A DNA stretch of 64,000 nt from an uncultured Beijerinckia sp. (GTDB lineage: Bacteria; Pseudomonadota; Alphaproteobacteria; Rhizobiales; Beijerinckiaceae). A model generated the notes under the pieces. It was not told the DNA's origin and made no database searches. It worked only from the letters and a program-made list of their open reading frames with translations. Below, in pieces: positions 11,763 through 40,020 of this stretch (position 1 is the stretch's first letter; every line of letters starts with the position of its first letter). Where the stretch lies: the NCBI GenBank assembly GCA_964534115.1, contig CAZHOK010000002.1, positions 2,622 through 66,621 on the forward strand, read 5' to 3'. Position numbers and translations under genes: made by a program.

Positions 11763-12344
11763 ATGGTGGTACTCAACCGGATTTACACACGCACGGGCGA
11801 CAATGGCTCGACGGCCCTGGGCACGGGCGAGCGTCGGCCAAAATATGATCTTCGCGTCGAAGCCTATGGCACAGTGGACGAGACCAATGCGGCGCTCGGC
11901 ATGGCGCGGATTGCGACGGCCCCGATCGACCCCAAACTCGACGCCATGCTTGGACGGATCCAAAATGATCTCTTCGACCTCGGAGCCGATCTGTGCACTC
12001 CCGACAAGGGAGAAAAGCTCGCCTGGGAGCCGCTACGAATTCTTGAGGTCCAGGTTGAGCGCATCGAACGGGAAATAGACGAGCTCAATGCAGAGCTGGA
12101 GCCGCTCAAATCTTTCGTCCTGCCGGGCGGATCACCGGCCGCCGCTGCACTTCACCTTGCCCGAACGATCAGCCGACGAGCCGAAAGACTGATGGTGGCC
12201 CTCGCCGCCCAGCCTGACGAAAAAGTCGGCGAGCCGGCGCTCAAATATATCAATCGTCTTTCTGATTTCCTTTTCGTAGCATCTCGTTACGCGAATAAGG
12301 GTGGTGCTGGCGATGTCCTCTGGGTGCCGGGTCAGAACCGCTGA
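11763..12344 (+). CDS. PduO-type ATP:cob(I)alamin adenosyltransferase
   Basis: IYTRTGDNGST, RVEAYGTVDETN, QNDLFDLGADL, FVLPGG, RTISRRAER and YINRLSDFLF. Confidence 0.93.
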   Translation: MVVLNRIYTRTGDNGSTALGTGERRPKYDLRVEAYGTVDETNAALGMARIATAPIDPKLDAMLGRIQNDLFDLGADLCTPDKGEKLAWEPLRILEVQVERIEREIDELNAELEPLKSFVLPGGSPAAAALHLARTISRRAERLMVALAAQPDEKVGEPALKYINRLSDFLFVASRYANKGGAGDVLWVPGQNR

Positions 12345-15254: not shown

Positions 15255-15824
15255 TTGACGATTCATTTCCAGCCGATGGTTTCGCCGGAAGCATGTCCGG
15301 CACTGGTACTCAACGCGGACTTCCGGCCGTTGAGCTACTATCCGCTGTCGTTATGGTCCTGGCAGGACGCGATCAAGGCGGTCTTTCTCGATCGGGTCAA
15401 TATTGTCTCCGAATATGACAAAATGGTTCGAAGTCCGAACTTCGAAATGAGACTCCCTTCAGTTGTCTCGCTCAAAACTTACATCAAGCCGACACGACAA
15501 CCAGCTTTCACCCGCTTCAACGTCTTTCTTCGTGACCGCTTCAGCTGCCAGTATTGCTCATCCCACGAAGATTTGACCTTCGACCATGTGATTCCAAGAT
15601 CAAAGGGCGGACTGACCACTTGGGAAAATGTTGTCGCCGCATGTTCAGCCTGCAATCTGCGCAAGAGCGATCGCCTGCCTCATGAAGTGCAGATGTGGCC
15701 CGCACACAGGCCTTTTCAACCAAGTGTGAACGACCTGCACCAAAACGGTCGGCTCTTCCCACCAAATTATCTCCACGAAAGCTGGGTCGATTACCTTTAT
15801 TGGGATTCCGAACTCGAGCCCTGA
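15255..15824 (+). CDS. Stand-alone HNH endonuclease family protein
   Basis: LVLNADFRPL, NVFLRDRFSCQYC, LTFDHVIPRSKGG and WENVVAACSACNLRK (zinc-finger HNH). TTG start. Confidence 0.88.
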   Translation: MTIHFQPMVSPEACPALVLNADFRPLSYYPLSLWSWQDAIKAVFLDRVNIVSEYDKMVRSPNFEMRLPSVVSLKTYIKPTRQPAFTRFNVFLRDRFSCQYCSSHEDLTFDHVIPRSKGGLTTWENVVAACSACNLRKSDRLPHEVQMWPAHRPFQPSVNDLHQNGRLFPPNYLHESWVDYLYWDSELEP

Positions 15825-15862: not shown

Positions 15863-16378
15863 ATGCTTCCACGCCTTATCATCACATGTGTCGGTCTCGC
15901 TTGCGCCAGTGCGGCAGGACTCGTTTTCCTGCCGCTCGCCGTTATTTTCGATCCATTGGTGCAATTGCTCACGAGCGATACGGCGGCCGATCACTGGTTT
16001 GAGATTCTCTCAGGCGTTCTGACCGACGAAGATCCCGAAGAGGCAATAGAAGCCCTCTTCCACCTTCTGTGGACGATCGGCATGTTGATCTGTGTTTTGC
16101 CAGTCACCATCGTTGCCTTGATTGGTGGCATTGTCCGCACGGGAAGTTTCGCCTTCTACGCCGGCCTCACAGGATTCATCGCAGCTGCAGTACCCTGGAT
16201 TTTGCGAGGAGGTCGACTCGCTGAACGAAGCGCCTCGATTTCAGCGGCAGAAGCGCATTTGACAGTGATCCTTTTCATCACCGGAGTGATCGCAGGAACG
16301 ATCTACTGGCTCATTGCAGGACGGGCGCGTTCGAAGGGAAGTGAAAAAGGTTGGATGGCGTCCTATCGCAACGGATAG
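15863..16378 (+). CDS. Hypothetical integral membrane protein
   Basis: 171-aa ORF with about 4-5 hydrophobic helices; no family recognised. Confidence 0.6.
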   Translation: MLPRLIITCVGLACASAAGLVFLPLAVIFDPLVQLLTSDTAADHWFEILSGVLTDEDPEEAIEALFHLLWTIGMLICVLPVTIVALIGGIVRTGSFAFYAGLTGFIAAAVPWILRGGRLAERSASISAAEAHLTVILFITGVIAGTIYWLIAGRARSKGSEKGWMASYRNG

Positions 16379-25779: not shown

Positions 25780-26634
25780 ATGAGACCTGGTCAGAACAAG
25801 CGTATGCGTGGCCGCAACAACAATAATAGGAAGGGCCCGAATCCGCTCACAAGAACCTATGAGTCCAATGGACCCGACGTCAAAATCCGCGGGACAGCCC
25901 ACCACATTGGCGAGAAATATCTCCAACTCGCGCGCGATGCTCAATCATCCGGCGATCCTGTGATGGCGGAGAGCTATCTGCAGCATGCCGAACATTATTT
26001 TCGCATTATTGCAGCTGCACAACAGGCTCAGCAGCAGGCACAGGCTGGATATATGCGGCCCGCCGGCGAGACTGAAGCTGAGGAGGAGGACGACGACGAG
26101 GGCGGAATCCCAGATCGTTTCGCATCACCCTTGGAGCGTATGCCGCCAAATCCACCTCAGCAGCAGCCCTACGGCGGGCAACCGCAGCCTTTCTCCGGCG
26201 GATCGCCTCAGCCTTTTGTCCAGAACAATTTCGGATCGGAACGCCCCCAAGGTCAGCCTCAGGGGGAGCGGCAAGAGCGGGGGCCTCGGCCCGATCGTCC
26301 CTATCAGGACCGCAATGGCCAGCAAAGCCGGCATGGGAATAATCCAAACAGGGGGCCCCGGCCGCAGCGGGACTTCCGCAACGATCAGCAGCCTCGCTTC
26401 GAAAACCGTACCGGAGACGAGCAGCCTGAATCTGGTGGACTGCCTGCTTTCATCACCGCGCCGGTGCGAATCCCGGTCAATGAAGCGGAGCCAAGTCAGG
26501 CATCCGACGCCGATGTGGTCCGCACGGAAGAAAATGAGGGCGGCGGCTTTCATCTACGGCCTCGCCGGCGCCGACGTCGGCCAGAAGGCGAAGGCGAAAC
26601 TCCTACGCGCGGTGAAAATTCGAGTTTGGATTGA
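25780..26634 (+). CDS. DUF4167 domain protein with long disordered Q/P/R-rich tail
   Basis: RTYESNGPDVKIRGTAHHIGEKYLQLARDA..GDPVMAESYLQHAEHYFR. Conserved position between prmC and clpB. Confidence 0.9.
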   Translation: MRPGQNKRMRGRNNNNRKGPNPLTRTYESNGPDVKIRGTAHHIGEKYLQLARDAQSSGDPVMAESYLQHAEHYFRIIAAAQQAQQQAQAGYMRPAGETEAEEEDDDEGGIPDRFASPLERMPPNPPQQQPYGGQPQPFSGGSPQPFVQNNFGSERPQGQPQGERQERGPRPDRPYQDRNGQQSRHGNNPNRGPRPQRDFRNDQQPRFENRTGDEQPESGGLPAFITAPVRIPVNEAEPSQASDADVVRTEENEGGGFHLRPRRRRRRPEGEGETPTRGENSSLD

Positions 26635-26662: not shown

Positions 26663-26868
26663 ATTTGTCCTGGAGCAATATGGAAGTCTTCCATTTCTCC
26701 GAAATGAAAACACGCATTCATGATCTGGATCATCGCGAAGAAAAGCTTGTTCTGATCCCCTTTTGTTTGTGGCGTCCCCTTCCTACATCCTGTGGAGCTG
26801 CCAATGGGGGCTCACTTTCGACGTTGCAGGATCGCTACGGGATCCGAGCAACGGTTGAGGAGAAGAAC

Positions 26869-29508
26869 ATGAACGCTGAAAAATACACTGAACGCGCACG
26901 AGGCTTCGTACAGGCCGCTCAGTCTCTGGCCTTGCGCGAAGGCCATCAGCAATTCACACCCGAACATCTTCTTAAGGTCATTCTCGATGATGAGGATGGC
27001 CTTGCTGCTGGGCTCATCAACAAGGCCGGCGGCCGCTCCCGCGAAGCCCTGATCGAAACTGAGCTTGCTTTGTCCAAGCTTCCAAAGGTTCAAGGGACCG
27101 GTGCAGGGCAATTATATCTGGCACCAACAACAGCACGTATTTTCGACTCGGCTGAAAAACTGGCACAGAAGGCTGGCGATTCCTTTGTGACCGTCGAGCG
27201 TTTGCTGCTTGCCATCGCAGCGGAAAAATCATGCGAAGCCGGAAAGATATTGTCGCAGGCAGGCCTAACCGCTCAATCTCTCAACCAAGCAATCGAAGAT
27301 CTTCGAAAGGGACGGACTGCTGATAATGCAACGGCAGAAAATGCTTATGACGCTTTAAAAAAATATGCCCGCGATCTCACGGATGCCGCGCGCTCTGGAA
27401 AGCTTGATCCGGTCATCGGCCGCGACGAGGAGATTCGAAGAACAATTCAGGTTTTATCCCGCCGCACAAAAAACAATCCGGTCCTCATTGGCGAGCCTGG
27501 TGTCGGCAAGACCGCGATCGTCGAAGGGCTTGCGCTTCGAATCGTCAATGGTGATGTGCCTGAGGGTCTTAAAGACAAAAAGCTTCTGGCTCTCGATATG
27601 GGCTCTCTTATTGCCGGTGCAAAATTCCGCGGTGAATTTGAGGAGCGGCTAAAGGCTGTTTTGAATGAAGTTACAGCGGCAGCAGGAGGAATTATTCTTT
27701 TTATCGACGAGATGCATACGCTTGTCGGTGCCGGTAAAGCAGATGGTGCTATGGATGCCTCAAACCTGCTTAAGCCCGCCTTGGCGCGCGGTGAGCTTCA
27801 TTGCGTAGGCGCAACCACACTTGATGAATATCGAAAGCATGTCGAAAAAGATGCTGCGCTGGCACGTCGTTTTCAGCCTGTTTTCGTTACAGAGCCAAGC
27901 GTAGAGGACACAATTTCTATTCTGAGGGGACTCAAGGAGAAATACGAACTTCATCACGGTGTCAGAATTACCGACTCAGCCATTGTCGCTGCCGCTACAC
28001 TTTCCAATCGCTATATTTCTGATCGCTTTCTTCCAGACAAGGCTATCGATCTTATCGACGAAGCGTCATCTCGTCTCCGCATGCAAGTTGATTCCAAGCC
28101 CGAGGAACTCGATGAAATTGATCGGAGAATCATCCAACTCAAGATCGAACAGGAAGCACTGCGAAAGGAAAGCGATGCAGCGTCTCTTGATCGTCTTGCA
28201 AAGCTTGAAGCAGAACTAGCCGATCTTGAAGAAAAATCCTCGTCACTCACATCGCGCTGGAGAGCTGAGAAAAACAAGCTTGGGGAAGCACAAAAGCTCA
28301 AAGAACAACTTGAAGCTGCCCGAAATGAACTGGCCCAAACACAGCGGCGTGGTGAATTTCAGCGAGCTGGCGAGCTGACCTATGCAATCATTCCTGGTCT
28401 GGAAAAGGAGCTCGTTGAGGTCGAAGCGAAGGCTGGAGCTGCACTTGTTGAGGAGGAAGTCACGGCTGATCATGTCGCGCAAATTGTCTCACGCTGGACC
28501 GGTGTCCCGGTTGATAAAATGCTCGAAGGGGAGCGTGAAAAGCTTCTCAAAATGGAGGCGTCACTGGCTCAACGCGTCATTGGTCAAAAAGAAGCCGTTA
28601 AGGCTGTCGCGACCGCTGTACGTCGCGCCCGAGCAGGCCTTCAGGATCCTAACCGACCCATCGGATCCTTTATGTTCCTTGGGCCAACCGGCGTAGGCAA
28701 AACAGAATTAACAAAAGCTCTTGCAGCATTTCTTTTCGACGATGAAAACGCAATGGTGCGCATTGACATGTCCGAATATATGGAGAAGCACTCCGTTTCT
28801 CGTCTGATTGGCGCTCCTCCCGGATATGTTGGATATGAAGAAGGCGGAGCGCTTACAGAAGCTGTCAGGCGGAGACCTTATCAGGTCGTTCTGTTTGATG
28901 AGATCGAGAAAGCCCACACTGATGTTTTCAATGTACTCCTGCAGGTACTTGATGATGGTCGCTTGACAGACGGGCAGGGACGCACAGTCGATTTTCGAAA
29001 TGTTCTTGTGATCATGACATCAAATCTTGGTTCAGAATATCTTGTGAACCAAGCTGAGGGTGAAGATTCAGCTACAGTCGAGAACGAAGTCATGACTGTC
29101 GTACGCGGTCATTTTCGACCTGAGTTCTTAAATCGCATCGATGAAATTATTCTTTTCCACCGATTGCGGCGGGAGGATATGGGTTCAATCGTTGATATTC
29201 AGATGGCTCGACTTGGTCGGCTGTTGGAAGACAGAAAAATGCGTGTTGAGCTCGACAAAAAAGCGCGCAACTGGCTTGCTGAGCGCGGTTATGACCCCGC
29301 CTATGGGGCGCGTCCTCTTAAACGTGTCATACAAAAATATGTTCAGGATCCGCTCGCTGAACGTATTCTCGCTGGTGTCATCAAAGATGGAGCGACGGTT
29401 CACGTCGGATCTAATGAATATGGTTTGACCATTGATGGTGAGGCCTTATTCATGGATGATGCTGCAGATCGCATGAAGGGCGCAAGCCACTCAGGTTCAC
29501 TGAATTGA
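26869..29508 (+). CDS. clpB: ATP-dependent chaperone ClpB
   Basis: Two AAA modules ([16 protein letters not shown]), a middle coiled coil and [11 protein letters not shown]. Real start is ATG 26869 after GAGGAG. Confidence 0.97.
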
Positions 29509-29518
29509 ACCTGAGTGG
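29487..29518. terminator. 13-bp inverted repeat between convergent clpB and the NHase-like operon (likely bidirectional terminator)
   Basis: CCACTCAGGTTCA-ctgaat-TGAACCTGAGTGG, a perfect stem overlapping the clpB stop and followed by a T-rich stretch on the + strand. Confidence 0.6.
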
Positions 29519-29534
29519 AGCGTTTTCTTTCTGA

Positions 29535-30182
29535 TCAGTTTGGCGTGCGTGCCTCAGCGACACCAATCATTGAGTCACGCGTCACGAGTGCTTCGAGCTC
29601 GGCCTCATTGAGGTTATCTGTTCCAGCTGGTCGCCTGGGTATGACAATATACCGAATGTCGGCAGTGGAATCGTGGACGCGAACTTCAGTTTTTTCTGGG
29701 AGGTATGTTCCAAATTCGTTCAGGACGGACCTCGGTTCATAAACGACTCGCGCTCGATATTCTCTGCTCTTGTACCAGGAAGGCGGAAGTCCGAGTAATT
29801 CTCTTGGATAACAGGAGCACAAGGTGCAAACAATTACATGATGAATATCTTCTGAATTTTCGACCGCGATAAGCTTGGTTGTCGTCATAGGAAAGCCAAG
29901 TTCGGCAACCGCCTCGTTCGCATTCATGAGTAATTTGATCCTGAATAATGGATCTAACCAGGATCTCACGACTATTTTGGCACCATTTGCCGGCGTAATC
30001 TGATCTCTCTTTTCGATTGCTGCGCGGACTTCATCAGCTGTGAAAACGCCTTTTTCAATCAGGAGCTCTTTGAGAGCTATACCGAGGATCTGATAATAGC
30101 TGTGAATTTTGTCATCGGGCTGAAGTGGAGCATGATGATGATCATCATGCCCATGTTGGTGATCATGGTGATCATGAGGCAT
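29535..30182 (-). CDS. Cobalt-type nitrile hydratase alpha / thiocyanate hydrolase gamma-like subunit
   Basis: GAKIVVRSWLDP, VIVCTLCSCYP metal-binding motif (Co-type CTLCSC), WYKSREYR, VRVHDSTADIRY and LVTRDSMIG. His-rich N-terminus. Confidence 0.93.
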   Translation of the reverse strand: MPHDHHDHQHGHDDHHHAPLQPDDKIHSYYQILGIALKELLIEKGVFTADEVRAAIEKRDQITPANGAKIVVRSWLDPLFRIKLLMNANEAVAELGFPMTTTKLIAVENSEDIHHVIVCTLCSCYPRELLGLPPSWYKSREYRARVVYEPRSVLNEFGTYLPEKTEVRVHDSTADIRYIVIPRRPAGTDNLNEAELEALVTRDSMIGVAEARTPN

Positions 30183-30495
30183 CGTCTACTCCCGATATTT
30201 TTTCCAACCAGTGGCGATATAAATCAATATCAATGCTGTCACTTTGCGAGCCAGAATAGTCATCCCAGAGGTCGGACTGATTAAACCGGACTTCATAGAG
30301 GGATTGCTTTGGCCCCTCCAGTCGATAGGCCAGTAGCTCGGGATTTCCGAATTCTCCAAAATATTTGGTGACGCGACCAATTTTTCCTCGCACGTATAAG
30401 GGCGTCCTTATGTGTCCGACTGGAAAATCCTCACGAACGCGGACCAAATCGCCGGGCTTTAAAGGTTCTTCCCAGCAATCCCCTGCTGGCTTCAC
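30172..30495 (-). CDS. Nitrile hydratase beta C-terminal (SH3-like) half / thiocyanate hydrolase alpha-like subunit
   Basis: PGDLVRV, GHIRTPLYVRGKIG, PELLAY, LYEVRF..DLW and IDLYRHWLE. GTG start overlaps the upstream stop (GTGA). Confidence 0.88.
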   Translation of the reverse strand: MKPAGDCWEEPLKPGDLVRVREDFPVGHIRTPLYVRGKIGRVTKYFGEFGNPELLAYRLEGPKQSLYEVRFNQSDLWDDYSGSQSDSIDIDLYRHWLEKISGVDDAS

Positions 30496-30833
30496 CGACC
30501 GTCTCCGTCAAAGTGAATGTCCAACTCGCCGGCTGCTTTGAGACGCTCTCGAATTACTCTCACGCGCTCATCAATCTCTGCTTGAGTCAAAATACCTTTC
30601 TCAATCATCTGGCGGGATAATGCAGCTGTCCATCGTTCGTAATAGGTCAGGGTTTGATACGCTTCATCTCCAAGGGTCTCAACGTAGCGACGGTTTTCAT
30701 GCGTTGTCACGATGCCCTTCGCCCCGATAATTGATCGAATGCCGTCGATCTGTTTTTCCCAGAAACTCACCTCATGTGGCGCAACATCAATAGATCCAGC
30801 GTGTTGGCCCCCAACGTCATGTACACCGCGCAT
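30492..30833 (-). CDS. Nitrile hydratase beta N-terminal half / thiocyanate hydrolase beta-like subunit
   Basis: MRGVHDVGG start, FWEK, ENRR..E, YYERW and EKGILTQAEI. Strong RBS GGGAGGAAG upstream. Confidence 0.88.
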   Translation of the reverse strand: MRGVHDVGGQHAGSIDVAPHEVSFWEKQIDGIRSIIGAKGIVTTHENRRYVETLGDEAYQTLTYYERWTAALSRQMIEKGILTQAEIDERVRVIRERLKAAGELDIHFDGDGR

Positions 30834-30881
30834 AACTTCCTCCCAACCCGTGGATTTATTCTTGCAGGATTTATTCTGGTT

Positions 30882-32858
30882 TCAAGTCTCAAAATCATAG
30901 GTGCGTTCTACAATCCGAACCAAGTCCAGCATGATCGAATTCAATTCAAAATCTTTTGGAGTGTAAACAGCGGAGACGCCCTCCGCCAAGAGAAGGGCCT
31001 TGTCTTCTGACGGGATGATGCCCCCCACAACAAGGGGAATATGACTGAGATTTTCAGCGCGCATCTGAGCGATGACTTGCCGAACCAGAGAAACATGCGA
31101 TCCCGAGAGGATCGATAAGCCCACACAATGGACATTTCCGGATCTTGCACCGGAAACAATTTCTGAGGGCGTCAAGCGAATTCCCTCATAAACAACATCC
31201 ATCCCCACATCGCGCGCTCGCACGGCAATCTGTTCAGCACCATTCGAATGGCCATCCAAACCCGGCTTGCCGACAAGAAATTTTAGGCGACGCCCGAGTT
31301 TTTGTGAGACGCGTTCAACCTCCGCTCGAATATCATCAAGATCGCCTCCAATTTGTCGTGCTTCTGCTGCAATACCCGTCGGAGCACGATATTCACCGAA
31401 AGCCTCTCTCAGAACGCTTGCCCATTCTCCAGTCGTGATACCCGCTTTCGCAGCTGCAATTGAAGGCTCCATAATATTGCGCCCCTCATTTGCAGCACTC
31501 CTTAATTCTGACAAGACCTTTCCAACAATTCTCGGATCTCGAGCATGACGCCATGCAACAAGATTAGATATTTGATCGGCTTCAACATGTTCTGGTACAA
31601 TCATAATGGACTGATTGTCAGTTGTGAGCGGAGATGGCTCGCTTTCTGTAAATCGATTGACACCGACAACAACCTGTTCACCGCGTTCAATTGCTTCCAA
31701 CCTTGCAGTATTGGATTCAACCAGCTTAGATTTCATATAACCGCTTTCCACTGCTACTATTGCGCCGCCGAGTTTCTCGATTTTCAGTAATTCCTGTCGT
31801 GCTTGATTTTTTAAATCCTCAACTTTTTTGGTTATCTCGTAACTTCCATCAAAAAGATCCCCATATTCAAGAAGATCTGTCTCATATGCCATGATCTGCT
31901 GGATACGCAGGGACCATTGCTGATCAAAGGGCCGCGGTAAGCCAAGAGCTTCGTTCCAGGCGGGGAGCTGAACAGCGCGGGCGCGAGCATTTTTTGAGAG
32001 AACGACGGCAAGCATTTCGATCAATATTCGATAAACATTATTCTCTGCTTGCTGCTCCGTCAGACCAAGAGAATTGACCTGAACACCATATCGAAACCGT
32101 CGATATTTTTCATCTTCGATAAAATATTTATTTCGAGTGATTTCATCCCAGAGCTCGGTAAATGCCCGCATTTTGCAAAGCTCTGTAACAAACCGCATTC
32201 CAGCGTTCACAAAAAAGGAAATACGACCAACGATTTCCTGAAAATTTTTTGGATCTGTTGATTCAGCATCTCTTACGCTGTCCAGGATGGCTATAGCCGT
32301 TGCAAGCGCATAACTTAATTCTTGAACCGGGGTCGCTCCTGCTTCCTGAAGATGATAGGAGCAGACATTCATCGGGTTCCATTTCGGCAGTTCTTTAGTC
32401 GTGAAGGTAATGAGATCGCGTGTCAAACGCATCGACGCCGCGGGCGGAAAAACATAAGTTCCACGCGACAAATATTCTTTGATGATGTCGTTCTGAGTGG
32501 TTCCCTGCAATTGATCGCGCTGGGCGCCTTGCTCGTCGGCGACTGCAATATACAAAGCCATCAACCACGGAGCCGTTGCATTGATGGTCATGGATGTATT
32601 CATTTCGCCGAGGGGAATGGACTCGAACAATGTTCGCATATCACCAAGATGTGAGATTGGTACGCCGACCTTCCCGACCTCACCTCGAGACAGTGGATGA
32701 TCGGAATCATAGCCGGTCTGAGTAGGCAAATCGAAGGCGATTGAGAGCCCAGTCTGCCCTTTCGCCAAATTTCTCCGATAGAGACGGTTTGAGTCGGCGG
32801 CGGTTGAATGACCTGCATAAGTACGAAATATCCACGGTCGATCAGATGTCTGGCTCAT
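30882..32858 (-). CDS. ecm: Ethylmalonyl-CoA mutase (MeaA/Ecm, B12-dependent)
   Basis: PWIFRTYAGHSTA, GQTGLSIAFDLPTQTGYD, NVCSYHLQEAGA and KPGLDGHSNG B12 motif. 658 aa, divergent from ccr. Confidence 0.9.
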   Translation of the reverse strand: MSQTSDRPWIFRTYAGHSTAADSNRLYRRNLAKGQTGLSIAFDLPTQTGYDSDHPLSRGEVGKVGVPISHLGDMRTLFESIPLGEMNTSMTINATAPWLMALYIAVADEQGAQRDQLQGTTQNDIIKEYLSRGTYVFPPAASMRLTRDLITFTTKELPKWNPMNVCSYHLQEAGATPVQELSYALATAIAILDSVRDAESTDPKNFQEIVGRISFFVNAGMRFVTELCKMRAFTELWDEITRNKYFIEDEKYRRFRYGVQVNSLGLTEQQAENNVYRILIEMLAVVLSKNARARAVQLPAWNEALGLPRPFDQQWSLRIQQIMAYETDLLEYGDLFDGSYEITKKVEDLKNQARQELLKIEKLGGAIVAVESGYMKSKLVESNTARLEAIERGEQVVVGVNRFTESEPSPLTTDNQSIMIVPEHVEADQISNLVAWRHARDPRIVGKVLSELRSAANEGRNIMEPSIAAAKAGITTGEWASVLREAFGEYRAPTGIAAEARQIGGDLDDIRAEVERVSQKLGRRLKFLVGKPGLDGHSNGAEQIAVRARDVGMDVVYEGIRLTPSEIVSGARSGNVHCVGLSILSGSHVSLVRQVIAQMRAENLSHIPLVVGGIIPSEDKALLLAEGVSAVYTPKDFELNSIMLDLVRIVERTYDFET

Positions 32859-33004
32859 AGTTGGCGCTCGCGTGGGAATTGATCACGAAATCTCTGCGGC
32901 TCGCTGCAGAGCAGCATATTCCCTCGTTTGCGCCAGCAGCACTTATTCCTTAGTGGCATGGATTTAAGGCCTCAGCTGTCCTACGATTCAGGACATTAGT
33001 AGTA

Positions 33005-33019
33005 TGGTGCACCGCAGCA
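33005..33019. promoter_or_regulatory. PhaR(AniA)-type operator in the ecm/ccr divergent promoter
   Basis: TGGTGCACCGCAGCA matches TGC-RNY-GCA-SMA on both strands. Confidence 0.55.
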
Positions 33020-33062
33020 TTCACGCTAACATGGCTTGTGGTTTCTTGCGGAGGAAAGAGCT

Positions 33063-34361
33063 GTGGGAGCGAACAATACGAAGGATGGCACGCCAACGGC
33101 CCAATCTTGTCTTGTTAAGGATCTTTACGACATAGGTGAGATCCCGCCTCTTGGGCATGTCCCAGCCCGCATGCATGCTTGGGCAATCCGTAAAGAACGG
33201 CACGGGCCACCTGAAGAATCAATGAAGCTTGAAGTGGTTCCGACTTGGTCATTGGACAGCCATGATGTGCTTGTTCTGGTGATGGCTGCCGGGGTCAATT
33301 ACAATGGCGTATGGGCAGCCTTAGGCGAACCAATTTCGCCGCTCGACGGACACAATCTGCCTTTTCATATAGCCGGCTCGGATGCCGCCGGTATTGTATG
33401 GGCCGTTGGATCAAAGGTCAGGCGTTGGAAGGTTGGTGACGAAGTCGTCGTTCACTGCAATCAGGATGATGGCGATGACGAAGAATGCAACGGTGGAGAT
33501 CCGATGTTTTCTTCAACCCAACGTATCTGGGGATATGAGACCCCCGATGGGTCATTCGCACAATTCTGTCGGGTTCAAGACCGTCAGCTTATGGCGCGTC
33601 CCAAACACTTAAGCTGGGAAGAAAGTGCTTCATATACGCTGACCTTGGCAACAGCCTATCGTATGCTGTTTGGCCACGAGCCGCATCGCTTGAAGCCAGG
33701 TGACAATGTTCTGGTTTGGGGAGCCTCGGGAGGTTTAGGCGTTTTTGGTGTGCAATTATGCGCTGCTGCTGGCGCCAATGCGATTGGCATCATTTCCGAC
33801 GAAGGGAAGCGCGATTACGTCATGTCCCTAGGCGCCCGAGGCGTGATCAATCGAAAAGATTTTAAGTGCTGGGGTCAGCTTCCGAAGGTTAATTCAACTG
33901 AATTCAATGCCTTCATGGCAGAGGCCCGGAAATTCGGAAAAGCCATCTGGAACCTCACGGGTCGCAAAGACGTCGATATTGTGTTTGAACATCCCGGTGA
34001 ACAAACTTTCCCGGTGTCATGCTTTGTTGCCAAAAGAGGCGGCATGGTTGTCTTCTGCGCCGGCACAACCGGATTTAACCTGACATTTGACGCCAGATTT
34101 GTCTGGATGCGGCAGAAACGGATCCAAGGTTCACATTTCGCGCACTTAAAGCAAGCTGCAGCTGCAAATCAATTCGTTATAGATAGGCGGATCGATCCTT
34201 GTTTGGGTGAGGTCTTTCCATGGGACAAAGCCCCTGCAGCTCATACCAAAATGTGGCGAAACGAGCATTCGCCAGGAAATATGGCGGTTCTAGTCAATTC
34301 ACCCCGACCGGGCTTGAAAACGCTTGAAGATGTCATCGAAGCATCGCAGTCAAAAATTTAG
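33063..34361 (+). CDS. ccr: Crotonyl-CoA carboxylase/reductase
   Basis: KDLYDIGEIPPLGHVP, MAAGVNYNGVWA, HIAGSDAAG, RIWGYETPDGSF, VLVWGASGGLG and WMRQKRIQGSHFA. GTG 33063 after GGAGG. Confidence 0.95.
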   Translation: MGANNTKDGTPTAQSCLVKDLYDIGEIPPLGHVPARMHAWAIRKERHGPPEESMKLEVVPTWSLDSHDVLVLVMAAGVNYNGVWAALGEPISPLDGHNLPFHIAGSDAAGIVWAVGSKVRRWKVGDEVVVHCNQDDGDDEECNGGDPMFSSTQRIWGYETPDGSFAQFCRVQDRQLMARPKHLSWEESASYTLTLATAYRMLFGHEPHRLKPGDNVLVWGASGGLGVFGVQLCAAAGANAIGIISDEGKRDYVMSLGARGVINRKDFKCWGQLPKVNSTEFNAFMAEARKFGKAIWNLTGRKDVDIVFEHPGEQTFPVSCFVAKRGGMVVFCAGTTGFNLTFDARFVWMRQKRIQGSHFAHLKQAAAANQFVIDRRIDPCLGEVFPWDKAPAAHTKMWRNEHSPGNMAVLVNSPRPGLKTLEDVIEASQSKI

Positions 34362-34487
34362 CAGAGGCTCAATCGGTCGTTAGCTTTTGATTTCACCGAG
34401 CTTGCTTCAGGTGCGGTGCGGAGTGGCCAAATTCTTCTGTATCGGGTATTTAATTTATATTGAGATCAGAAAAAGCGGCCCGAGGGT

Positions 34488-35381
34488 ATGAAGCAACACG
34501 GAAGCGACCTCTGGCTCTCTCTGGTGATTCCAGCCGCCTTCGTTTTGCTCTGGTCAACGGGTTGGATTGTCGCAAAATTTGCTGTTCGCGATGCGGATGT
34601 ATTGACCTTTCTTGTACTCCGCTATTTTGGCGCTGCCGTCATTCTGGCCATATTTGCCTGGTGGTGCGGAGCACTTTGGCCGCGTGACAGAAATGGATGG
34701 TTCCATGCATTCCTATCGGGCATTCTTCTGCATGCGCTCTATCTTGGCGGGATCTGGTGGGCAATCTCTCAGGGAGTTCCCGCCTCTATCTCGGCATTGC
34801 TTGCGGCGCTTCAGCCGATTTTAACCGCCTGTCTAGCCCCCCGCCTTGCTGGCGAAAAGGTTTCATCCTTGCAATGGACGGGTATTTTACTGGGCCTTTT
34901 AGGAATCCTTCTTGTTCTTGCGCCGAAGCTGGCTTCGCTAACAGCTGCAGAACTGCAAGGGTCTATTGTTGCACTTTCCGTGAATGCGCTCGGAATGGTT
35001 GCTCTTACATTGGGGACTTTTTATCAGAAGCGCTTTTTGCAAAAAATGGACTTACGAGCCGTAGGATCAATTCAGTTTGCGGCAGCGATGCTTGTGACCT
35101 TGCCCGCGGCATATGTTTCCGAGAGCATGCATGTAGTATGGTCGCTCAATACAATATTAAGTTTAGCTTGGTCGATCGGGGCCCTTTCGATTGTTTCAAT
35201 CGCGCTGCTTCTTCATCTTTTGCGTAAAGGCGAAGTCGCTCGCGCAGCACAGCTGATCTACCTTGTGCCCCCAACGGCTGCCATTCAGGCTTTTCTCTAT
35301 TTCGGTGAAACGCTTACTTCCATACAAATGGCAGGCATGGCTCTGACCTGTCTGGGCGTGGCTTTGGCAGTACGGCGGTGA
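34488..35381 (+). CDS. DMT/EamA family transporter
   Basis: FVLLWSTG start, about 10 TM helices and two EamA repeats (LAGEK..., FGETLT). Confidence 0.88.
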   Translation: MKQHGSDLWLSLVIPAAFVLLWSTGWIVAKFAVRDADVLTFLVLRYFGAAVILAIFAWWCGALWPRDRNGWFHAFLSGILLHALYLGGIWWAISQGVPASISALLAALQPILTACLAPRLAGEKVSSLQWTGILLGLLGILLVLAPKLASLTAAELQGSIVALSVNALGMVALTLGTFYQKRFLQKMDLRAVGSIQFAAAMLVTLPAAYVSESMHVVWSLNTILSLAWSIGALSIVSIALLLHLLRKGEVARAAQLIYLVPPTAAIQAFLYFGETLTSIQMAGMALTCLGVALAVRR

Positions 35382-35457
35382 ACAACAGTCCGAAAGGCTG
35401 ATTGCCCTGCGGTCCGGCTTATGTTGCGATGCAAAATGCTTATTCGGAGAATGCGAG

Positions 35458-37143
35458 ATGACTGGTCAGACATACCAGAATCCCGGGCTATCGGCGCAGG
35501 ATTTTCTTGAGCTTGCAGACAAGGCCTTTATCGACGTCGAACAGCTTTTCAAAGAAATTAGAACTGTCGTAAGAGCGGATGTCTCGACTGATGGAAGAAT
35601 CAATCCAGCGGCGATGGATGCCTCGCAGCACACGACGCATGGGCTTGCATGGTTCGCAACCTATTTGGAATCTTTGCGAGAAATGATCGCTTATGCACGC
35701 AGACTTGAAGAAGAGAATCGCTTTGGCGAGATTGAGGAGCTTCTGACGCGGATCGGCGTTGGGGAGTATATTGCACAATTCTTTGGTGGGATTCCAATGA
35801 ATCAAGGCGAGTTTATTCGGCTTGATGATTTCAATTTATCCCAAGAATTGATCGTAAAGTATAGATCTGACGCTGTTGGTCGCGTGATCGCAAATGGCAA
35901 TACAGCACTGAACCGCGCCAAGCTCGTTTCTCTCATTGCAGGACTCGACACGACCGCTTTGGTCGGTAACCCCGGTCTTGATGACACAATGGAATCCATC
36001 CGCGAAGAAATCAGAAAATTCGCGGCTTCAAAAATTGTCCCATATGCCCATGAATGGCATCTTGCCAACGATTATATACCGCTTGAAATCGTAGACGACC
36101 TTTCGGCTCTTGGAGTCTTTGGACTCACAATTCCAGAACAATATGGCGGGATGGGACTCGGTAAAATAGCCATGTGTGTCGTAACAGAAGAATTGTCTCG
36201 AGCCTATATCGGCGTCGGTTCTCTTGGAACCAGATCTGAAATTGCGGCAGAACTCATTATCTGCGGCGGCACCGAAGAACAAAAGCAATCTCTCCTTCCT
36301 CAAATTGCATCTGGTGAGATCCTCCCAACAGCAGTGTTTACGGAGCCCAACACAGGGTCCGATCTTGCATCCCTTCGGACGCGTGCAGTTCGTAAGGGTG
36401 ACGCCTATATGGTTACGGGAAACAAAACTTGGATCACCCATCCCGTACGCGCCGACCTCATGACAATTCTTGCGCGAACAAATCTTTCAGAGCCAGGCTA
36501 TAGAGGTCTATCTATGTTTTTGGCTAAAAAGCCACGCGGCACTGATGCTGATCCATTTCCTGTTGCGGGCATGTCGGGGAGCGAGATTGAGGTCCTTGGC
36601 TATCGTGGGATGAAAGAGTACGAAATTGCGTTTGATGACTTTCGGGTTCCTGCAGAAGATTTGCTTGGTGGCATAGAAGGCCAAGGCTTTAAGCAGCTGA
36701 TGCAAACATTTGAGGCAGCACGAATCCAGACGGCTGCCCGATCAGTCGGCGTAGCGCAAAACGCACTCGAACTAGCAGTTCGCTATGCCATGGAGCGTAT
36801 ACAATTTGGAAAACAATTGATCGCTTTCCCGCGCGTTGCTGACAAGATTGCACTTATGGCAGTCGAAATTCATATTGCCCGACAACTCACATATTTTTCA
36901 GCGCGGGCCAAAGATGCGGAAAAAAGATGCGATGTCGAAGCAGGAATGGCCAAGCTTCTCGGAGCCCGAATTGCTTGGTCTGCGGCCGACAATGCACTAC
37001 AAATACATGGCGGAAATGGTTTCGCCTTAGAGTATCAAATATCTCGCGTGCTTTGTGATGCACGTATTCTTAATATTTTTGAAGGAGCTGCAGAAATTCA
37101 AGCTCAGGTTATCGCTCGTCGCATCCTTGAAGATATAAATTGA
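35458..37143 (+). CDS. mcd: (2S)-methylsuccinyl-CoA dehydrogenase (long acyl-CoA dehydrogenase)
   Basis: 561 aa with the N-terminal extension (THGLAWFATYLESL), AVFTEPNTGSDL, GSEIEVLGYRGMKEY and LNIFEGAAEIQ. Clustered with ccr and ecm. Confidence 0.85.
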   Translation: MTGQTYQNPGLSAQDFLELADKAFIDVEQLFKEIRTVVRADVSTDGRINPAAMDASQHTTHGLAWFATYLESLREMIAYARRLEEENRFGEIEELLTRIGVGEYIAQFFGGIPMNQGEFIRLDDFNLSQELIVKYRSDAVGRVIANGNTALNRAKLVSLIAGLDTTALVGNPGLDDTMESIREEIRKFAASKIVPYAHEWHLANDYIPLEIVDDLSALGVFGLTIPEQYGGMGLGKIAMCVVTEELSRAYIGVGSLGTRSEIAAELIICGGTEEQKQSLLPQIASGEILPTAVFTEPNTGSDLASLRTRAVRKGDAYMVTGNKTWITHPVRADLMTILARTNLSEPGYRGLSMFLAKKPRGTDADPFPVAGMSGSEIEVLGYRGMKEYEIAFDDFRVPAEDLLGGIEGQGFKQLMQTFEAARIQTAARSVGVAQNALELAVRYAMERIQFGKQLIAFPRVADKIALMAVEIHIARQLTYFSARAKDAEKRCDVEAGMAKLLGARIAWSAADNALQIHGGNGFALEYQISRVLCDARILNIFEGAAEIQAQVIARRILEDIN

Positions 37144-39081: not shown

Positions 39082-40020
39082 GTGACTGAAAATACGATCG
39101 AGTCAGACGAATCGGAACCATCAACTAGGCGGGATATCGCACTGGTTCCGCCCGATGCTGTCGCGGGACGCACACTTGTTATTGTCATCGCGATCATGAC
39201 TTTCTTGGCGGCGATGACAGCCGGAACCGCCGTTTTGATTAGCGATATTTCGTCGGGATGGCGTCGCGATGTGGCGCGTGAAATGACAATTCAGATAAAG
39301 CCTAACCCCGGCCGCAATATAGAAGCGGATTTATCACGAGCAGAAGAGATTGCCAGGGGTGGGACGGGCATCAAGAATGTGACTGTTCTCAAAAAATCAG
39401 AATCCGAGCGGCTTCTTGAGCCGTGGCTGGGTTCAGGCCTTGAGCTTGCAGAACTGCCAATACCGCGGCTTCTGGTTCTCAAGGTGGACGATAAAAAAAC
39501 TCTGGATATAGAGGGACTCCGGCGAAAGGTTACTGAGGCCATACCTGGTTCTACCCTAGATGACCACCGTTTCTGGATCGACCGTTTGTCTACCATGTCA
39601 TGGATAGTGGTCATCGTAGCTTTAGTTATTCTAGGCCTTGTTCTCGTTGCAATGGCGCTGGCAGTCGCTTTCGCAACCAGAGGCGCGATGGCGGGCAGTC
39701 ATGAAGTTATTCACATATTGCATTTTGTCGGAGCCGCAGATTCTTACATCGCTCGGGAATTCCAGAAGCATTTTTTAAAGCTGGGGCTTGAAGGGGGTTT
39801 GCTAGGTGGAGGCACGGCAATCTTTGTATTTTTCCTAGCAGGGCTTGCATCGACACAAGTTTCAACAGCCGGCGGTGATCAATTGCAGGCTTTGTTTGGG
39901 AGCTTCGATCTTGGGCTGATGGGCTATGTGGGAATACTCCTGATTTCAGCTTCGGTCGCTTTCCTCACATCATTTACGTCGCGTTCGGTCGTACTCCGTC
40001 AGCTGCAAGACCTCTCGTAA
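39082..40020 (+). CDS. ftsX: Cell division permease FtsX
   Basis: One TM helix, a periplasmic loop, then three TM helices. LDDHRFW, VIHILHFVGAADSYIAREF. Follows ftsE. Confidence 0.88.
   Translation: MTENTIESDESEPSTRRDIALVPPDAVAGRTLVIVIAIMTFLAAMTAGTAVLISDISSGWRRDVAREMTIQIKPNPGRNIEADLSRAEEIARGGTGIKNVTVLKKSESERLLEPWLGSGLELAELPIPRLLVLKVDDKKTLDIEGLRRKVTEAIPGSTLDDHRFWIDRLSTMSWIVVIVALVILGLVLVAMALAVAFATRGAMAGSHEVIHILHFVGAADSYIAREFQKHFLKLGLEGGLLGGGTAIFVFFLAGLASTQVSTAGGDQLQALFGSFDLGLMGYVGILLISASVAFLTSFTSRSVVLRQLQDLS

Follow-up and report, generated by a model that had tools for sequence, protein, structure and literature searches.

What enzyme is encoded by an operon in which the beta subunit of a nitrile hydratase (NHase) is divided between two open reading frames (ORFs), and does it act on thiocyanate, as do the thiocyanate hydrolases (SCNases) that have the same arrangement? 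This question is raised by three genes in a 64,000-nt stretch of contig CAZHOK010000002.1 from an uncultured Beijerinckia sp.; the whole stretch is hereafter called the window, and coordinates are positions in it unless a locus of another genome is named. The genes, all on the minus strand, encode an N-terminal beta half (betaN), a C-terminal SH3-like beta half (betaC), and a cobalt (Co)-type alpha subunit (Table 1). We found that the operon is an ordinary, vertically inherited member of a split-beta NHase family. The evidence presented below suggests, with a probability of about 0.78, that the locus encodes a functional, heterotrimer-based (alpha/betaN/betaC) cobalt(III) NHase that hydrates a C-N triple bond to the amide.

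The first-pass annotation of this DNA had described three co-oriented ORFs for betaN, betaC, and a Co-type alpha, and we confirmed all three together with their motifs (HDVGG and YYERW in betaN, GHIRTPLY in betaC, and the alpha metal site). As scored from the predicted proteins, the matches of these ORFs to Pfam families and to structures in the Protein Data Bank (PDB) are far beyond chance, and the best PDB matches of alpha are the alpha subunits of Co-type NHases (E values between 1e-59 and 1e-62). The two beta ORFs match the NCBIfam beta model TIGR03888 at positions 1-100 (betaN) and 139-225 (betaC), and they align to residues 1-91 and 133-217, respectively, of the beta chain of the Pseudomonas putida Co-NHase. 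Because they match the two ends of one model and of one chain, betaN and betaC together correspond to one beta subunit minus its linker. Also, betaN aligns to the beta subunit of SCNase and betaC to its alpha subunit.

The catalytic residues expected of a Co-type NHase are found across the three chains. In alpha, the motif VCTLCSC occupies residues 118-124 and provides Cys119, Cys122, Ser123, and Cys124; threonine in C-T-L-C-S-C is the accepted signature of the Co type, while serine marks the Fe type. In betaN, the canonical Arg48 is followed by Arg49 and preceded by Asn47, which takes the position of SCNase Arg90 and NHase Phe51, and the YYERW motif corresponds to Tyr64/Tyr65-Glu-Arg-Trp68. 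The betaC segment GHIRTPLYVRGK includes the second conserved arginine, Arg30 (in GHIRTP). In solved NHases, the two beta arginines hydrogen-bond the oxidized cysteines. We found that betaN Arg48, YYERW, and betaC Arg30 are invariant among 84-86 family sequences and align with the corresponding residues of the PDB beta chains. Read at this level, the operon holds a complete and conserved catalytic set of a Co-type NHase. A match of alpha to TIGR03793, the NHLP family of leaders of ribosomally synthesized and post-translationally modified peptides (RiPPs), was dismissed, as this is a full-length alpha with a metal site; such leaders descend from NHase alpha.

The division of beta into two genes is reproducible in DNA and in RNA. 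The region 29450-30950 was recovered without indels in Logan contigs from four metagenome runs of three studies. Short contigs from lake and estuary metatranscriptomes run gap-free across both the betaC/alpha junction (30063-30267) and that of betaN/betaC (30432-30613), and alpha is covered by RNA from two riverine/freshwater metatranscriptome runs; these contigs, few and of low depth and with possible DNA carry-over, show that the NHase genes are transcribed in natural waters. For comparison, we surveyed the best 80 of 413 genome loci that encode alpha relatives (from a scan of one genome per species) together with eight metagenomic loci. Among the 87 loci that have all three genes (two orders), every one has the arrangement betaN-betaC-alpha and every one has betaN and betaC in different frames, with the two halves nearly always coupled by an ATGA/GTGA-type or ATGnnTGA junction. 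Purifying selection is clear on both halves. The frames of the two beta halves, whose fusion by sequencing reads had been named as a possible objection, are therefore separate.

The junctions themselves support the translational coupling that the same annotation had proposed, and both overlaps lie where it had placed them. The stop of betaN and the GTG start codon of betaC share GTGA at 30492-30495, with GGAGACGG immediately upstream, and betaC and alpha overlap by 11 nt at 30172-30182. The GGAG assigned to alpha is indeed internal to betaC but stands at 30189-30192, 6 nt 5' of the alpha ATG, and not within the 11-nt overlap as had been described. Furthermore, betaN is preceded by a strong Shine-Dalgarno sequence of its own (GGGAGGA). 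A promoter/terminator scan of the spacer upstream of betaN gave no terminator-like hairpin and a weak promoter-like match only. Co-transcription with the upstream gene ecm is possible, while the RNA contigs found spanned the NHase genes only. Downstream, a perfect-stem hairpin between alpha and the convergent clpB overlaps the last codons of clpB, whose stop is at 29508, at a distance of 17 nt from the stop codon of alpha; a T-run comes after it on the plus strand only. The hairpin likely marks the end of the NHase operon transcript and the terminator of clpB.

A protein search with alpha returned at least 8000 clusters at E<=1e-10, and the best 120 were inspected. These are 68-92% identical to the query and are annotated as 'nitrile hydratase (subunit alpha)' where named. 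All 120 have the block APPQPDDKVHSYYQILG and CTLCSCYPR[DE]L, along with an N-tail that is rich in His/Asp and varies in length. As defined by these sequences and loci, the clade is large and alphaproteobacterial, with an always-split beta, a His/Asp-tailed alpha with CSCYPR, and no adjacent activator gene. The operon in the window has each of these traits, including the coupled betaN-betaC-alpha genes; residues 1-24 of its alpha contain nine His and six Asp. The same three-gene unit was found in Rhodobacteraceae (Jannaschia, Roseovarius, Yoonia, Loktanella, Planktotalea, Litoreibacter, and others), in which alpha is 55-63% identical. In this bacterial family, the unit sits in another, likewise conserved core neighborhood of purB, luxRI, a FliG-like gene, the NHase genes, an LpxL-like acyltransferase gene, DUF1223, acnA, and ccmGC, as labeled by reading of representative sequences rather than by a family-library scan. 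In other Hyphomicrobiales, the NHase genes lie between guaB and rsmB/guaA (loci L007 and L093) or beside hydantoinase genes (L089). Across about 95 loci, the neighbors are lineage-specific core genes, and we found no consistently linked amidase, aldoxime dehydratase, activator, or transporter (including cobalt transporters). The rarity of split-beta enzymes implied by the first-pass annotation is wrong or at least unsupported: related bacteria commonly carry this form, and it has already been annotated in them.

The family also includes several local variants. In loci L003 (8661-9509) and L091 (7651-8496), a gene for a short-chain dehydrogenase/reductase (SDR) of 281-282 aa lies 0-6 nt after, or overlaps, the NHase alpha gene, which suggests an NHase-SDR operon variant in some Hyphomicrobiales that is not general. 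L091 also has genes for a NitT/TauT-type ATP-binding cassette (ABC) transporter, a glutathione S-transferase (GST), a dienelactone hydrolase, and an Amidohydro_2 protein nearby. In a Beijerinckiaceae metagenome-assembled genome (MAG), as seen in L007 (5318-7935) and L008 (1634-4251), genes for a 2Fe-2S protein and a 720-aa molybdopterin-binding subunit are inserted between betaC and alpha. This IorAB-like Mo hydroxylase pair is an insertion of one lineage and is not general; L093, from a related genome, has an uninterrupted NHase operon at the same guaB...rsmB/guaA site as L007.

To a wider extent, an HMMER search of 1.84 billion representatives gave 3111 alpha relatives at E<=1e-3. Besides alpha-only proteins, the best 150 include fusions of betaN-alpha (about 320 aa; P0123, P0126-P0128, and P0136), betaC-alpha (about 316 aa; P0130 and P0145), and full beta-alpha (450-530 aa; P0137, P0163, and P0240). 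Often, the fusions have a His-rich stretch at the very position that the His tail takes in the free alpha, and the full beta-alpha fusions, with their His-rich linkers, match the eukaryotic type. In this branch of the NHases, the distribution of domains over subunits is evidently fluid.

Vertical inheritance of the operon is supported by its context. The closest Hyphomicrobiales relatives (loci L001, L002, and L009-L013) show the same ccr<>ecm-NHase><clpB arrangement as the window. In L012 (1883-2477) and L013 (4722-5312), about 590 nt separate ecm from betaN, vs. 48-80 nt in the window and in the rest of the close relatives. The GC content of the operon (48.8%) matches those of ecm (48.0%) and clpB (50.4%). 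With synteny conserved and GC matching its neighbors, the operon is not a recent insertion, and we rejected its recent acquisition by horizontal transfer. The nearest genomes are MAGs of Hyphomicrobiales and Beijerinckiaceae; their alpha subunits are 74-80% identical to the one in the window and their ClpB proteins about 85%. Freshwater metagenomes, including riverine, reservoir, and drinking-water ones, repeatedly contain the window. The locus had been regarded as the only accessory metabolic locus in an otherwise core region; its neighbors are indeed core genes, but the synteny kept in relatives and the presence of the family in hundreds of alphaproteobacterial genomes contradict the view of a one-off accessory locus. 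Taken together, the enzyme appears to be vertically inherited and to serve, on its own, a housekeeping or scavenging function in a freshwater bacterium of the Hyphomicrobiales.

For the proposed mechanism, the start/stop overlaps would couple translation and thereby keep the output of the three chains equal, and these chains would assemble like an ordinary alpha-beta protomer without the beta linker. By analogy with NHase enzymology, Co(III) would be bound by alpha Cys119, Cys122, and Cys124 together with backbone amides; Cys122 would be oxidized to a sulfinate and Cys124 to a sulfenate, with betaN Arg48 and betaC Arg30 holding both groups in place. The nitrile would bind to the metal and be hydrated to the amide. 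Cobalt would be inserted without a dedicated activator, and, as a conjecture, the His/Asp tail of alpha may serve as a built-in metal-capturing arm that replaces one. We found no activator-like or second beta-like sequence in the window, and none among the annotated neighbors there or in related loci. Activator-free maturation has been reported for the three-subunit AnhDEA enzyme of Streptomyces canus (PMC7329996).

Several points weigh against this reading. The score of alpha, 245.0 bits, is about 5 bits short of the equivalog cut-off of the NHase-alpha model TIGR01323 (249.85), and the beta halves score 62.7 and 70.2 bits vs. a TIGR03888 cut-off of 152.2; the latter is explained by the split of beta, and subunits below the equivalog cut-offs indicate a divergent subfamily. 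The clade is annotated but apparently biochemically uncharacterized, and the RNA support consists of few low-depth contigs for which DNA carry-over is conceivable. Furthermore, the role given to the His tail is conjectural, a gene for an activator or a cobalt transporter could lie in another part of the genome, and no amidase is encoded in the window. Finally, betaN position 47 is Asn here but Leu in the Rhodobacteraceae (from 84 sequences), and classical NHases have Phe there; as this position varies between clades, a substrate guess based on the pocket may not generalize.

Compared with classical NHases, the pocket has alpha Arg127 for Trp (the position of Trp116 in the Pseudonocardia thermophila NHase, PtNHase, and of Arg136 in SCNase gamma), betaN Asn47 for Phe, and betaN Arg49 for His. 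As predicted from these replacements, the pocket would be more polar and more cationic than in classical NHases, which points, as a conjecture, to a small polar or anionic nitrile and not a bulky hydrophobic one. A tentative proposal, to which we give rather low odds, is that this abundant core-genome clade of freshwater and marine Alphaproteobacteria, which is expressed in situ, is self-metallating and activator-independent and acts on a small polar/anionic nitrile or pseudohalide beyond the substrates of characterized NHases, such as beta-cyanoalanine, a cyano-carboxylate, cyanamide, or thiocyanate. If true, this would represent an unrecognized route for nitrile nitrogen in aquatic systems.

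Among more specific readings, the one that fares best, though still improbable, is that the enzyme is an indole-3-acetonitrile (IAN) hydratase of the pathway to the auxin indole-3-acetic acid (IAA), as assumed for NHases of the Roseobacter group. A published survey recorded NHase for 62% of the marine and 0% of the non-marine Rhodobacteraceae and attributed it to the IAN/auxin route (PMC5437341), and these Rhodobacteraceae genes belong to the same split-beta family as the operon in the window. However, a Phaeobacter inhibens transposon mutant of the NHase beta gene still made IAA (PMC5148602), and no amidase or tryptophan-pathway genes were linked to NHase in any locus surveyed. The polar, cationic pocket predicted for the clade would suit the bulky indole poorly, the three-subunit S. 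canus enzyme refuses IAN (PMC7329996), and the organism is a member of the free-living freshwater plankton.

The possibility raised by the first-pass annotation, namely, that the enzyme is an SCNase (SCN- -> carbonyl sulfide + NH3) used for scavenging nitrogen from thiocyanate, is in our view very unlikely. The gene order of SCNase is scnB-scnA-scnC, and the order and the split point of beta in the window are identical to it; these parts of the SCNase-like description stand. In addition, betaN Arg49 matches SCNase Arg92, the HDHDH-type N-tail of alpha can be aligned to that of SCNase gamma (DHDHDHDHDHDH), and alpha Arg127 falls on gamma Arg136 in the alignment, a position that was exchanged in the mutant pair 3vyg/3vyh of the PDB. 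We confirmed this last alignment by comparing the SCNase gamma sequence (VVCTLCSCYPRPILG) with the R136W mutant 3vyg and with the reciprocal W116R mutant of the Pseudonocardia NHase, 3vyh. The study of these mutants reportedly found that beta Arg90 and gamma Arg136 govern the selectivity of SCNase.

The affinity to SCNase, and with it the thiocyanate inference, was rejected by hidden Markov model cut-offs, the tree, pocket residues, insertion and extension, and gene context. The score of alpha against the SCNase-gamma model TIGR03887 is 194.2 bits, about 100 bits short of the cut-off of 291.45, and alpha is 43% identical to SCNase gamma vs. 47% to PtNHase and 50% to the Bacillus NHase (185-187 aligned columns). 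In a distance-based neighbor-joining tree of alpha with 100 bootstraps, in which deep nodes are weak, SCNase was the sister of the window family in 0/100 replicates, and the classical Trp-type NHases were set apart from the rest in 83/100; nesting of the subunits in the SCNase clade or among the classical NHases tested was not found. Only one of the two pocket arginines is present, with Asn47 at the position of beta Arg90. Moreover, betaN begins with MRGVHDVGG, which corresponds to SCNase beta residue 46, such that the N-extension of about 45 residues is absent, and alpha lacks the 12-residue insertion of SCNase gamma. Neither CSCYPR nor a His-rich tail or linker is diagnostic of SCNase, as both are frequent in non-classical NHases; among the best 150 of the 3111 alpha relatives, CSCYP is followed by Arg more often than by any other residue. 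Genuine scn operons adjoin genes for cyanase, cobalt uptake, a NitT/TauT transporter, and sulfur oxidation (PMC5328954), but no neighbor of any of these kinds was found among the annotated ORFs of the window.

Even less credible is an enzyme of the ToyJKL kind, whose substrate would be a 7-cyano-7-deazapurine (toyocamycin or a compound of the preQ0 type). This reading draws on the three-subunit architecture and on the fact that actinobacterial ToyJKL and AnhDEA are the other characterized split-beta NHases (PMC7329996, PMC13243292). Against it, no deazapurine genes (homologs of QueC/D/E or GTP cyclohydrolase) were found among the annotated ORFs of the window or in related loci, and the family is alphaproteobacterial and core-genome. 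Finally, although ordinary NHases carry a single beta chain and a Roseobacter beta was noted by Marron et al. to have 'appeared truncated' (PMC3323583), the idea that the two beta ORFs are an artifact or a decaying, frameshifted single gene can be dismissed, given the same indel-free sequence in four independent assemblies, RNA contigs matching through both junctions, two coupled frames in all 87 loci, and purifying selection with invariant catalytic residues in both halves.

The surrounding genes, for which coordinates are given in Table 1, are consistent with a core region. The annotated core genes of the window are sdhAB, argH, lysA, etfAB, hbd, htpG, prmC, clpB, tyrC/hisC, metXW, ppa, amtB, ftsK, and lolA. 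Judging from the predicted products, the segment at 30882-37143 beside the NHase operon is an ethylmalonyl-CoA pathway cluster, in which the acyl-CoA dehydrogenase is probably a methylsuccinyl-CoA dehydrogenase.

Table 1. Features of the NHase operon and of its surroundings in the window.
Feature	Position	Strand	Remarks
alpha, Co-type NHase alpha	30182..29535	-	215 aa, 24.5 kDa; PF02979, E=8.9e-77
betaC, NHase beta C-terminal SH3-like half	30495..30172	-	107 aa, 12.3 kDa; PF02211, E=1.1e-18
betaN, NHase beta N-terminal half	30833..30492	-	113 aa, 12.8 kDa; PF21006, E=8.7e-21
Hairpin between convergent clpB and alpha	29487..29518		13-bp stem; strand not assigned
Spacer from ecm stop to betaN start	30834..30881	-	48 nt
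ecm-like ethylmalonyl-CoA mutase	30882-32858	-	Same strand as NHase, 48-nt gap
Crotonyl-CoA carboxylase/reductase (ccr)	33036-34361	+	Divergent; TIGR01751, 607 bits
EamA transporter	34488-35381		
Acyl-CoA dehydrogenase	35458-37143		561 aa, N-terminal extension of about 175 aa
PduO-type cobalamin adenosyltransferase	11763-12344		

Some other ORFs in the window are worth recording. The clpB ORF (26665-29508) begins at a TTG at 26665 and encodes 947 aa; as its relatives have 888 aa and the conserved N-terminus is near residue 69, translation probably begins some 200 nt further downstream. The DUF4167 protein (25780-26634) has a long, Q/P/R/G-rich, low-complexity C-terminal half and is syntenic in relatives (L001). 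Amid core genes lie an HNH endonuclease ORF (15255-15824) and, after it, an ORF of 171 aa (15863-16378) that matches no Pfam family; the same lack of a Pfam match holds for a 312-aa ORF at 39082-40020.

These results imply that split-beta NHases are not limited to SCNase and ToyJKL but represent the norm in a very large family of the Alphaproteobacteria. Members of this family are routinely annotated as plain 'nitrile hydratase' and, in roseobacters, are assumed to make auxin. The clade is of enzymological interest for having no activator gene, a universal His/Asp tail, and an Arg that replaces the classical pocket Trp, and it could provide a convenient activator-free scaffold for biocatalysts.

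Three-subunit NHases are already known in three cases: SCNase, ToyJKL, and AnhD-AnhE-AnhA of S. canus. The background given in the first-pass annotation was correct for the first two but omitted the third (PMC7329996). This enzyme of S. canus CGMCC 13662 (ScNHase) resembles the one in the window in its betaN-betaC-alpha order, its cobalt type, and the absence of an activator gene, and its subunits of 10.4, 11.4, and 21.3 kDa compare with 12.8, 12.3, and 24.5 kDa here (PMC7329996). It differs in being actinobacterial and in taking neonicotinoids and benzonitrile as substrates, and the likeness is drawn from its published description. S. canus AnhDEA was reported to branch with ToyJKL of S. rimosus (PMC13243292). 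The SCNase of Thiobacillus thioparus (PDB 2dd4) shares the split beta, the gene order, the Arg of CTLCSCYPR, and the HDHDH-type N-tail. It differs in its 43% identity, beta Arg90, the 12-residue gamma insertion, the sulfur/cyanase context, and the beta N-extension, which builds the SCNase dodecamer and is absent from betaN in the window.

Among solved structures, the best matches are the classical Co-NHases (P. thermophila 1ire, Bacillus 2dpp, and P. putida 3qxe), which share the metal site and the beta Arg/Tyr catalytic residues. These differ in having a continuous beta with a linker, Trp after CSCYP, and Phe before the canonical beta Arg; the classical alphas of Bacillus 2dpp and PtNHase, aligned from their N-termini, have no His tail, and classical Co-NHase operons carry a dedicated activator gene (PMC7329996, PMC7193024). 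The eukaryotic fused beta-alpha NHases (e.g., that of Monosiga brevicollis) differ in being one polypeptide rather than three and in usually having Leu/Val/Thr, not Arg, after CSCYP. Like the alpha described here, they have a His-rich stretch immediately before the alpha domain, and the fused representatives of 450-530 aa, apparently of eukaryote type, are 45-55% identical to our alpha and match it from its first residues. The top bacterial matches to the Monosiga enzyme were Roseobacter NHases (PMC3323583).

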